Source: Schmidtea nova
Taxonomy: Eukaryota
Reading direction: 5' to 3'
NCBI GenBank assembly: GCA_044892505.1
Contig: CM097882.1
Coordinates: 480,996,001 to 481,060,000 of the forward strand
DNA: 64,000 nt
Below the pieces are notes generated by a model. The model did not search any database and was not told the origin of the DNA. It saw only the letters and a program-made list of their open reading frames with translations. The position numbers were made by a program, and so were the translations under genes. Below, piece after piece: positions 21,779 through 23,155 of the stretch (the first letter of the stretch is position 1; every line of letters begins with the position of its first letter).

Positions 21779-23155
21779 TTACGCCAACCATCCTTTTCTG
21801 TCTGTTTTCTCATGCCTCTCCATCTCTATGTATAGCGTGTCTGCATATAGTTGCTCCCATAGGTTTTCTTTCCTTATAAACATTGGTTCTCCTGCTGCTA
21901 GTCCGCATTCTGTCGTTGGTTTTTCGCTCGTACTCGAATGTTTGTCTGTTTCAAAGAACTTTTCTACTGGTTTTCCCATACTTTTGATTCTTATAATGAC
22001 TCCTACTTTCAAGGGCCATTCTATTAGGTCATCGTATTCTCCTTTACATAGTGAGAAAAATATTGACACGTGTGTTCCTTGTCCTCTTCCGTCTCCATTT
22101 GGGTATACTTTCAATCTTATTTTAACCCCGTTTTTCCATAAATAAAATGGTGGGCTTATTACTGCTGTTTTCGTCATATTTCTGGCTTCTGCTAATTTGT
22201 CTCTGAAATCTGTTACTTTCCATAGGTAAGGTGCGATTGGTAAGTCCCTTCTTTCGTCAATTTCTCGTATTAATTGATTATATTGTATTTTCATTCCTTT
22301 TCCTAATTCTTCTATGGCTATTATTTTCTTTTCCATTCTTTCGCGAGTTAGTTCAAACTGCTCTCTTGTTTCTAGTAGTAAACTCATCATTATTTTATGT
22401 GATTCTACTTCTTTTTCTAATTTCTGAATTGTCCGTTCCGTTTCTTTAGTCGTTTCGTTTGTCATTTCCACATGCGTTAGTGCTGCTTCTTCTAGATGTT
22501 GTTGCATTGTTTTTCGCGTCCGCTTTTCCTTGCATCCATGCTTGTTATATGGGCATTCTCTTGGCCTTTCGGTACATAGTTTCCAATGTTCATGTAATTT
22601 TATTTCTTCTGTTATTTCACAATTGTTTGGACATTTATTTACATATTGTCCGCATACTTTCTCCTCTGTTATATTCAAGTGTTCTTCTTCGATTTTTCTC
22701 CTTGTTTCTCGGGCTTCACAATACTCGCATGCGATTTCTTCTTCTTTACATTCTTCCTTGTGTTGTTCTCTCTTCTTTAGAATTATTGTCTGTTGGCACT
22801 TCTCGCATTCGGTTCTTTTCTCCTCGCACTTTTCCATATGGTTTTCTAGATTACTTATTTGTCCTTGCCATGTACAAGGTGTATTTACGCACTCCGTTGT
22901 GGTGCTCATAATTTCTCTTTGGGTTGCTTTGTCCGTTCTGGTTTCGTCCAAAGCTATTCCTCCTTCTTTACATTCTGGGCATGTTGTTATTCCGTTGGTA
23001 TCTAATTCTTGTATACATTTTGTACATATTCTACATCCACATATCGTTTGTCTGGGTTCTCGTAATAAATTGTTACACTTCCCGCATGTGAGCCTCTTAC
23101 TCCATTTTCTGTTTTCTAGTCTCAACATTTCGATTATTCGTTCTTCTCTGTCCAT
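21779..23155 (-). CDS. TRAF: Element-encoded full-length TRAF (RING, TRAF zinc fingers, coiled coil, MATH/TRAF-C), intronless
   Basis: RING CGKC...CGCRICTKC...CPEC; zinc fingers CVNTPCTWQG...HMEKC and CPYNKHGC; MATH YLWKVTDF...SPPFY...RLKVYPNGDGRGQGTHVSIFFSLCKGEYDDLIEWP. Confidence 0.93.
   Translation of the reverse strand: MDREERIIEMLRLENRKWSKRLTCGKCNNLLREPRQTICGCRICTKCIQELDTNGITTCPECKEGGIALDETRTDKATQREIMSTTTECVNTPCTWQGQISNLENHMEKCEEKRTECEKCQQTIILKKREQHKEECKEEEIACEYCEARETRRKIEEEHLNITEEKVCGQYVNKCPNNCEITEEIKLHEHWKLCTERPRECPYNKHGCKEKRTRKTMQQHLEEAALTHVEMTNETTKETERTIQKLEKEVESHKIMMSLLLETREQFELTRERMEKKIIAIEELGKGMKIQYNQLIREIDERRDLPIAPYLWKVTDFRDKLAEARNMTKTAVISPPFYLWKNGVKIRLKVYPNGDGRGQGTHVSIFFSLCKGEYDDLIEWPLKVGVIIRIKSMGKPVEKFFETDKHSSTSEKPTTECGLAAGEPMFIRKENLWEQLYADTLYIEMERHEKTDRKGWLA

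Follow-up and report, generated by a model that had tools for sequence, protein, structure and literature searches.

The closest described relatives of the element considered here are the Burro retrotransposons of planarians, namely Burro1 (GYPSM1) and Burro-2 to Burro-4 of Schmidtea mediterranea and a Burro-like element of Dugesia tigrina. The account that describes them (PMC6431247) gives them as Gypsy LTR elements of about 30 kb with a polyprotein of about 5000 aa, as in our element, and with further shared features: an in-frame mononegavirus-like fusion protein before the protease, ankyrins, a RING ORF and TRAF/MATH cargo. According to this account, Jurka 2007 and Grohme 2018 reported a MATH_TRAF_C domain for Burro; the domain, the only TRAF part described there, lies either in the polyprotein or, as in D. 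tigrina, in an upstream accessory ORF (PMC6431247). MATH_TRAF cargo is already published for Burro, and hence is no surprise in this element family. What sets the present element apart is a complete TRAF, with RING, zinc fingers, coiled coil and MATH domain, which lies downstream of the polyprotein among four accessory ORFs.

Several other systems invite comparison. First, Burro1 carries B-IAP, like the element TRAF a captured host gene of the apoptosis and ubiquitin machinery, which is reported to protect stem cells from apoptosis (excerpts of PMC13465017, citing Lee et al. 2026, Dev Cell); unlike the element TRAF, it is a BIR-RING IAP and has been functionally tested. Second, the planarian host TRAF2/3-like proteins (D. 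japonica TRAF2-like A, Dendrocoelum lacteum TRAF-2/-4/-5, Smed-TRAF-1/2 and -2A/B) have the domain order of the element TRAF and share with it the replacement of the RING His by Cys, a third-finger His and, mostly, a single coding exon. They differ in that they are at most 31% identical to it, are not A-skewed, and stand at single or clustered loci. Third, fish iridoviruses and giant viruses also hold captured TRAF-fold proteins in mobile genomes, and the element TRAF matches that of the spotted knifejaw iridovirus in Foldseek (E=2e-19). These, however, are DNA viruses whose TRAFs have 12-30% identity to ours and were probably captured independently.

New here are the full-length downstream TRAF, the selection on it, its origin, and spacers of about 100 nt with conserved processing-like motifs. 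Our literature searches brought up no account of the spacers or of a complete Burro TRAF downstream of the polyprotein and the constraint it is under, matters that Grohme 2018 and Lee 2026 may cover, and the excerpts of three further papers (PMC11663942, PMC13238120 and PMC11410931) hold nothing on a full-length Burro TRAF. The domain label of the Burro diagram thus becomes a testable gene, a whole TRAF selected in two long-separated element families, and beside the reported B-IAP it would be a second captured arm of a survival pathway.

The carrier element and its TRAF

The element spans positions 16641-46415 of the minus strand (29,775 bp) of the window, that is, of the whole 64-kb stretch of DNA that was analyzed, and the TRAF sits between the polyprotein and the 3′ LTR. 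Read in the sense direction, the 153-aa RING ORF and the polyprotein are followed by ORFs of 118, 458 (TRAF), 353 and 189 aa. The features are listed below.

43302..46415, minus strand: 5′ LTR, 3114 bp, TG...CA
43278..43295, minus strand: primer binding site, which we take to be tRNA-Pro-like; identical site in two sister families
42509..42970, minus strand: upstream ORF, 153 aa, with C-terminal C3HC4 RING (Pfam)
23730..40184, minus strand: polyprotein, 5484 aa (ORF list, Pfam)
23248..23604, minus strand: accessory ORF, 118 aa, coiled-coil-like, dN/dS 0.11
23156..23247, minus strand: 92-nt spacer before the TRAF, with AATAAA and TGTA after the upstream stop and, as a candidate acceptor, a TAG three bases 5′ of the ATG
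21779..23155, minus strand: full-length TRAF accessory ORF, 458 aa, single exon (profiles, PDB, model, Foldseek)
22970..23086, minus strand: TRAF RING, aa 24-62, eight Cys ligands with Cys41 in the His position
22472..22891, minus strand: TRAF zinc fingers, aa 89-228, four C-C-H-C and a fifth C-C-H
22244..22483, minus strand: coiled coil, predicted helix aa 225-304 (AlphaFold2 model)
21812..22228, minus strand: MATH/TRAF-C domain, aa 310-448, TRAF1/2/3/5 type (Pfam, PDB search, Foldseek)
20604..21665, minus strand: accessory ORF, 353 aa, coiled coil, dN/dS 0.09
19959..20528, minus strand: accessory ORF, 189 aa, one transmembrane segment
16641..19754, minus strand: 3′ LTR, 3114 bp, one mismatch against the 5′ LTR
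16637..16640, with a second copy at 46416-46419, no strand: target site duplication AAGT

TG...CA LTRs, a target duplication, a primer site and the order PR-RT-RH-IN mark a Gypsy LTR retrotransposon; a classic polypurine tract was not seen upstream of the 3′ LTR. As the LTRs differ at one base, the copy in the window was inserted recently. The polyprotein holds Gag with CCHC, the fusion glycoprotein (PF24664, E=1.6e-71, in frame after Gag and ahead of the protease), protease, RT, RNase H, integrase, ankyrin repeats and a membrane-protein-like tail. With a length of about 30 kb, one polyprotein of about 5000 aa, an in-frame fusion protein between Gag and protease, ankyrin repeats, and RING and MATH_TRAF cargo, the element is of the Burro type, a class judged by layout; a search returned no named Burro sequence, and the best RT relatives in it were at most 59% identical. 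Pfam detected no BIR domain in the upstream RING ORF, and no dUTPase, BCL2-like, ubiquitin/SUMO-like or BIR match in the element segments tested; published Burro examples of these were mostly found with HHpred. The Bcl-xL BH region matched the element weakly (E=1.6).

Some further features of the element deserve mention. The polyprotein frame is open for 176 codons 5′ of its first ATG (40185-40712, no Pfam match), and the leader that separates it from the RING ORF contains tandem repeats of 29-33 bp (41279-42030). The polyprotein tail (23730-27284) contains repeats of a module about 90 aa long as well as two transmembrane segments with short tails, and looks like two type I membrane proteins; its one Pfam match is Fn3_ELFN (E=0.28), and its last 290 codons have a dN/dS of 0.29. 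Two ORFs that lack a Pfam match, of 198 aa (17109-17705) and 159 aa (17890-18369), lie in the 3′ LTR and recur in the 5′ LTR. At L133, a relative of the longer one, with 31% identity, is flanked by two host TRAF genes.

The TRAF ORF runs from ATG to stop in one unbroken frame of 458 codons (23155-21779, minus strand) and has the arrangement that defines the family, with a RING and then TRAF zinc fingers at the N terminus and a coiled coil and then a MATH/TRAF-C domain at the C terminus. Pfam matches MATH_2 (PF22486) at aa 310-446 with E=4.9e-21 and zf-TRAF with E=6e-8, and TRAF3_RING just at E=0.026. All 37 sequences returned by a PDB sequence search are TRAF1-6, led by TRAF3 (E=8e-24), and phmmer matched the N termini of TRAF6, TRAF5 and TRAF2 (E=7e-13 to 2e-11). 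A direct homolog search gave 10 distant TRAFs at 24-37% identity. The RING ligands are C24, C27, C39, C41, C44, C47, C59 and C62; the motif CGCRIC is aa 39-44, and Cys41 stands where most TRAFs have His. A single-sequence fold (pLDDT 46.9) was discarded in favor of an AlphaFold2 model based on a 50-row alignment, which has a mean pLDDT of 93.5, a helix at 225-304 (a coiled coil of about 80 residues) and a beta-sandwich at 310-448, and whose best Foldseek matches are the TRAF domains of TRAF3, TRAF1, TRAF2 and TRAF5 and the N terminus of TRAF6. An intact RING with CGCRIC, several TRAF zinc fingers, a coiled coil and a MATH domain, all in the A-rich codon style of the element, had been read from the DNA in the initial annotation; profiles, ligand count and model confirm the domains, and the codon style is borne out by the share of A at four-fold sites, which is 0.71 in the element TRAF and 0.60 in the polyprotein versus 0.30-0.38 in three host TRAFs.

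Copies, selection and the age of the capture

The TRAF is standard cargo of the window's element family, which we call family A. An 18-mer in the spacer adjoining it has 185 exact matches in the genome, and an 18-mer at the family-specific primer site has 207; the reversed controls have 0 in both cases. In a DNA search for TRAF copies, 40 of 558 candidates were scored, and 40/40 were full length at 96-100%. For the analysis of selection, copies chosen by protein similarity were left out, because such a choice favors low dN; the sample consists instead of the first 30 spacer 18-mer matches by position, picked blind to the TRAF sequence. A TRAF adjoins 30/30 of these, at full length in 28/30 and without stop or frameshift in 20/30, and Cys41 is retained in all 30.

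Purifying selection acts on the element TRAF. Among the 28 full-length copies dN/dS is 0.13 (RING 0.16, fingers 0.12, coiled coil 0.13, MATH 0.115), a codon model gives an omega of 0.116, and the estimates taken together range from 0.11 to 0.17, which upholds the proposal that the gene is kept by selection. A codon run with a fixed parameter gave lnL -7531.9 versus -7029.7; that the fixed parameter was omega=1 is presumed, so we rely on the estimates. In 15 of these copies, dN/dS is 0.11 for the TRAF (95% 0.08-0.15) versus 0.014 for RT-RNase H, and the neighboring accessory ORFs, at 0.09-0.11, are constrained similarly to the TRAF. The N/S ratio is 0.11 for variants present in at least 3 copies and 0.36 for singletons (Fisher p 7e-8, singletons versus shared), and each of the 7 variants that create a stop was seen in one copy. 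We infer that selection acts mostly on propagating lineages and that inserted copies decay afterwards. The singleton ratio below 1 leaves room for unsampled lineages or for some selection on inserted copies.

Sister families speak to the age of the capture. With a host-type TRAF as query, 127 of 2369 candidates were scored, and the best 30 loci, which were fetched, comprise 16 host-type loci and 7 loci each from two further families, B and C. The one copy of family B that was checked whole has LTRs of its own (1272 bp) and the primer site and ORF order of family A. Between A and this B copy, identity is 90% for RT, 57% for Gag and 51% for the TRAF, with little difference between TRAF domains (RING 53%, fingers 53%, MATH 50%). 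Synonymous sites of the TRAF are saturated (pS 0.74), whereas pN is 0.28 and 24/24 Cys are kept. The syntenic sister family and the saturation agree with the proposal of an old capture. The fusion-glycoprotein segment (about 33285-35234, polyprotein aa 1651-2300), at 96.6% identity between A and B (L122), stands apart from these values and suggests that the two families recently exchanged env.

Family C shows the Burro1 layout. In the one copy examined the MATH domain stands alone, in frame within the polyprotein, and RT is 88% identical to that of the window's element. This MATH domain groups with the full element TRAFs at 75/81, with an alternative placement retained (p-AU 0.056), so that it and the full TRAF may come from one capture or from two. 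Three proteins (P0093, P0103 and P0111) are 36-44% identical to the element TRAF, have an element-like composition and group with the A and B TRAFs; they may be element-type TRAFs of other planarians.

These copies bear on gene counts as well. A TRAF expansion is reported in S. mediterranea, and the excerpts of that report draw no link to Burro (PMC6109357). With 14 element-type versus 16 host-type loci among the best 30, counts of planarian TRAFs may be inflated by element copies.

Probable descent from the host TRAF family

The best explanation of the sequence comparisons is that the element TRAF descends from the TRAF family of a planarian host. Among the host loci retrieved, no TRAF is more than 31% identical to it, and a host TRAF matches a D. 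japonica TRAF at 70% and a D. lacteum TRAF at 41%, which indicates a planarian host. In a 37-row tree the element TRAFs form one group together with the host TRAFs and the named planarian TRAFs, with support of 100/98, and a 58-row quick tree gives 100; attraction may inflate this support, as planarian TRAFs are long branches and the element rows are composition-biased. Placement of the element TRAFs with TRAF2-like outgroups was rejected (p-AU 0.001). A position as sister to all host planarian TRAFs was retained (p-AU 0.077), and thus the donor paralog is not fixed. Cys41 and the third-finger His are common to the element TRAFs and the host planarian TRAFs. The phylogeny that the initial annotation had called for therefore puts the element TRAFs with planarian TRAFs at low identity to host copies; near-identity to one host TRAF in a single copy, which it had named as the refuting case, is contradicted by the many copies and the top host match of 31%.

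Other parts of that annotation have to be revised. It had described an intronless gene and a retro-capture, but 5/6 distinct single-frame host loci are themselves unbroken from RING to MATH, and missing introns are thus no proof of capture via RNA. Of the proposal of an old retro-capture adapted to the element, the age, the A-rich composition and the selection hold, and the RNA route is not shown by the missing introns. Similarly, the change of the RING His to Cys, which the annotation had remarked on, is rejected as element-specific: the same Cys occurs in the TRAFs of this host and of other planarians and in certain TRAF3-like proteins of echinoderms, and is an inherited trait. At this position 161 matched RINGs have 24 Cys and 116 His.

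The host genes are partly clustered, at about 444-455 Mb and at 416.8 Mb of one contig (G000 C2), where they are single-exon or split in two frames (L091, L094-L097, L100, L105, L110-L115 and L119) and include MATH copies in tandem at a spacing of about 4 kb.

Possible roles and route of expression

What might such a gene do for its carrier? The reading that we consider probable, from the sequence comparisons, is that the element TRAF is a host-derived, long-held and selected adaptor that shifts host survival signaling. An ancestral Burro-type element would have taken a TRAF from the planarian host family and kept it under purifying selection. Its mRNA would be made separately, by splicing or by spliced-leader addition at the AG just 5′ of the ATG. 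The MATH domain would bind the tails of host receptors or adaptors, the coiled coil would oligomerize, perhaps together with host TRAFs, and the RING would be retained as a structural or pairing module, probably a weak ligase alone. The resulting trimeric adaptor could then tilt host stress and survival signaling toward element-expressing cells. In excerpts of the respective reports, host TRAFs are required for cell survival in S. mediterranea (PMC7586133), traf2-1 restrains infection-induced degeneration in planarians (PMC4993586), and BURRO1 is expressed upon failure of PIWI silencing (PMC8532177).

The receptor groove is partly kept in the element TRAF, which has KVYPNGD and SST, with LAAGEP in place of IASGCP, and its groove residues resemble those of a host TRAF subgroup. 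A genome search for the TNFR cysteine-rich family gave 0 matches, its control being likewise silent. A pair of the TRAF2-cIAP kind is not supported in the window's family, where the upstream RING ORF lacks a BIR.

A second explanation, possible but distinctly less likely, is that of a dominant-negative decoy, close to the decoy or dominant modulator suggested in the initial annotation, which would occupy host receptor tails or TRAF trimers without a ubiquitin signal and so damp immune or death signaling directed against the element. The RING is consistent with this. At the Ile of the TRAF6 motif CPIC, presumably an E2 contact, families A and B have Lys26, and Ile is kept in three host paralogs. 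At the Phe of LFPD, which we take to serve RING-dimer formation, family A has Arg73 and family B has Lys. The Ile and Phe of a TRAF6-type active ligase are thus both replaced, and stand-alone ligase activity of the element TRAF is doubtful. Further, family C keeps the MATH domain alone. Yet host planarian TRAFs are themselves variable at these two positions, and the first of them is a Lys in TRAF3. Moreover, RING and fingers are conserved like the MATH domain, both within family A and between A and B, and the equal constraint on RING, fingers, coiled coil and MATH argues for a role of the whole protein and against a simple RING-less decoy.

It seems unlikely, though still worth weighing, that the element TRAF serves the element's own life cycle, as a trimeric scaffold or a ubiquitin adaptor in the assembly of particles, in trafficking or in turnover of the polyprotein, and hardly affects host signaling. 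The element does encode a fusion glycoprotein and membrane-protein-like tails, the adjoining accessory ORFs are as constrained as the TRAF, and selection is strongest on shared variants. Against such a role, no TRAF-binding motif of the PxQxT type is common to families A and B in the small ORFs or the polyprotein tail, the groove residues are like those of a host TRAF subgroup, and RING, fingers and coiled coil are absent from family C despite an RT identity of 88%. That the element TRAF is a host gene picked up passively and recently, or a neutral passenger, is highly improbable, and the former is refuted. In favor are just the single exon of host TRAFs and the element fragments near some of them, such as a relative of the LTR ORF about 1.5 kb from host locus L097, but the divergence from the host TRAFs retrieved, the 185 flanking matches, the dN/dS of 0.11-0.13, and family B, with every Cys kept at saturated synonymous divergence, all weigh against it.

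An adaptor that shifts host survival signaling would have to be expressed from behind a 16-kb polyprotein frame, and for the four downstream ORFs the spacer motifs suggest a route. The spacers before these ORFs measure 73-125 nt. TGTA occurs in the spacers of both families 15 times versus about 2 expected (maxima of 8 and 9 in 5000 shuffles), AATAAA, likewise in both families, is found early in 3/5 leaders, and a YAG lies at most 10 nt from the ATG in 4/5 cases in family A (P 0.008) and in 5/5 in family B (P 0.0007), two tests that are not independent, as the families are homologous, and that use a 10-nt window picked post hoc. In excerpts of work on the flatworm Macrostomum, the commonest operon spacing with spliced-leader trans-splicing is about 100 bp (PMC8629364). 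The layout of the spacers resembles that of operons resolved in this manner, and cis-splicing would fit equally well. Contigs of unspecified kind from one study (four runs) provide cover alone, with no joint at the candidate acceptors, and are given no weight either way. We tentatively extend this to a broader scheme, which is possible but has the odds against it, in which the downstream ORFs of Burro would form an operon-like cassette cut by host polyadenylation and spliced-leader trans-splicing, and the TRAF would be a mobile, multi-copy tuner of survival and immune signaling, to which a real part of the planarian "TRAF expansion" would be due.

Elsewhere in the window, an ORF for an 820-aa non-LTR reverse transcriptase (11091-13553, minus strand; PF00078, E=9e-36) is flanked by 15-bp tandem arrays (about 7700-9100 and 13490-14300), and a fragment matching ArfGap (2910-3302, plus strand; E=5e-4) probably belongs, as an exon, to a host gene close to the insertion.
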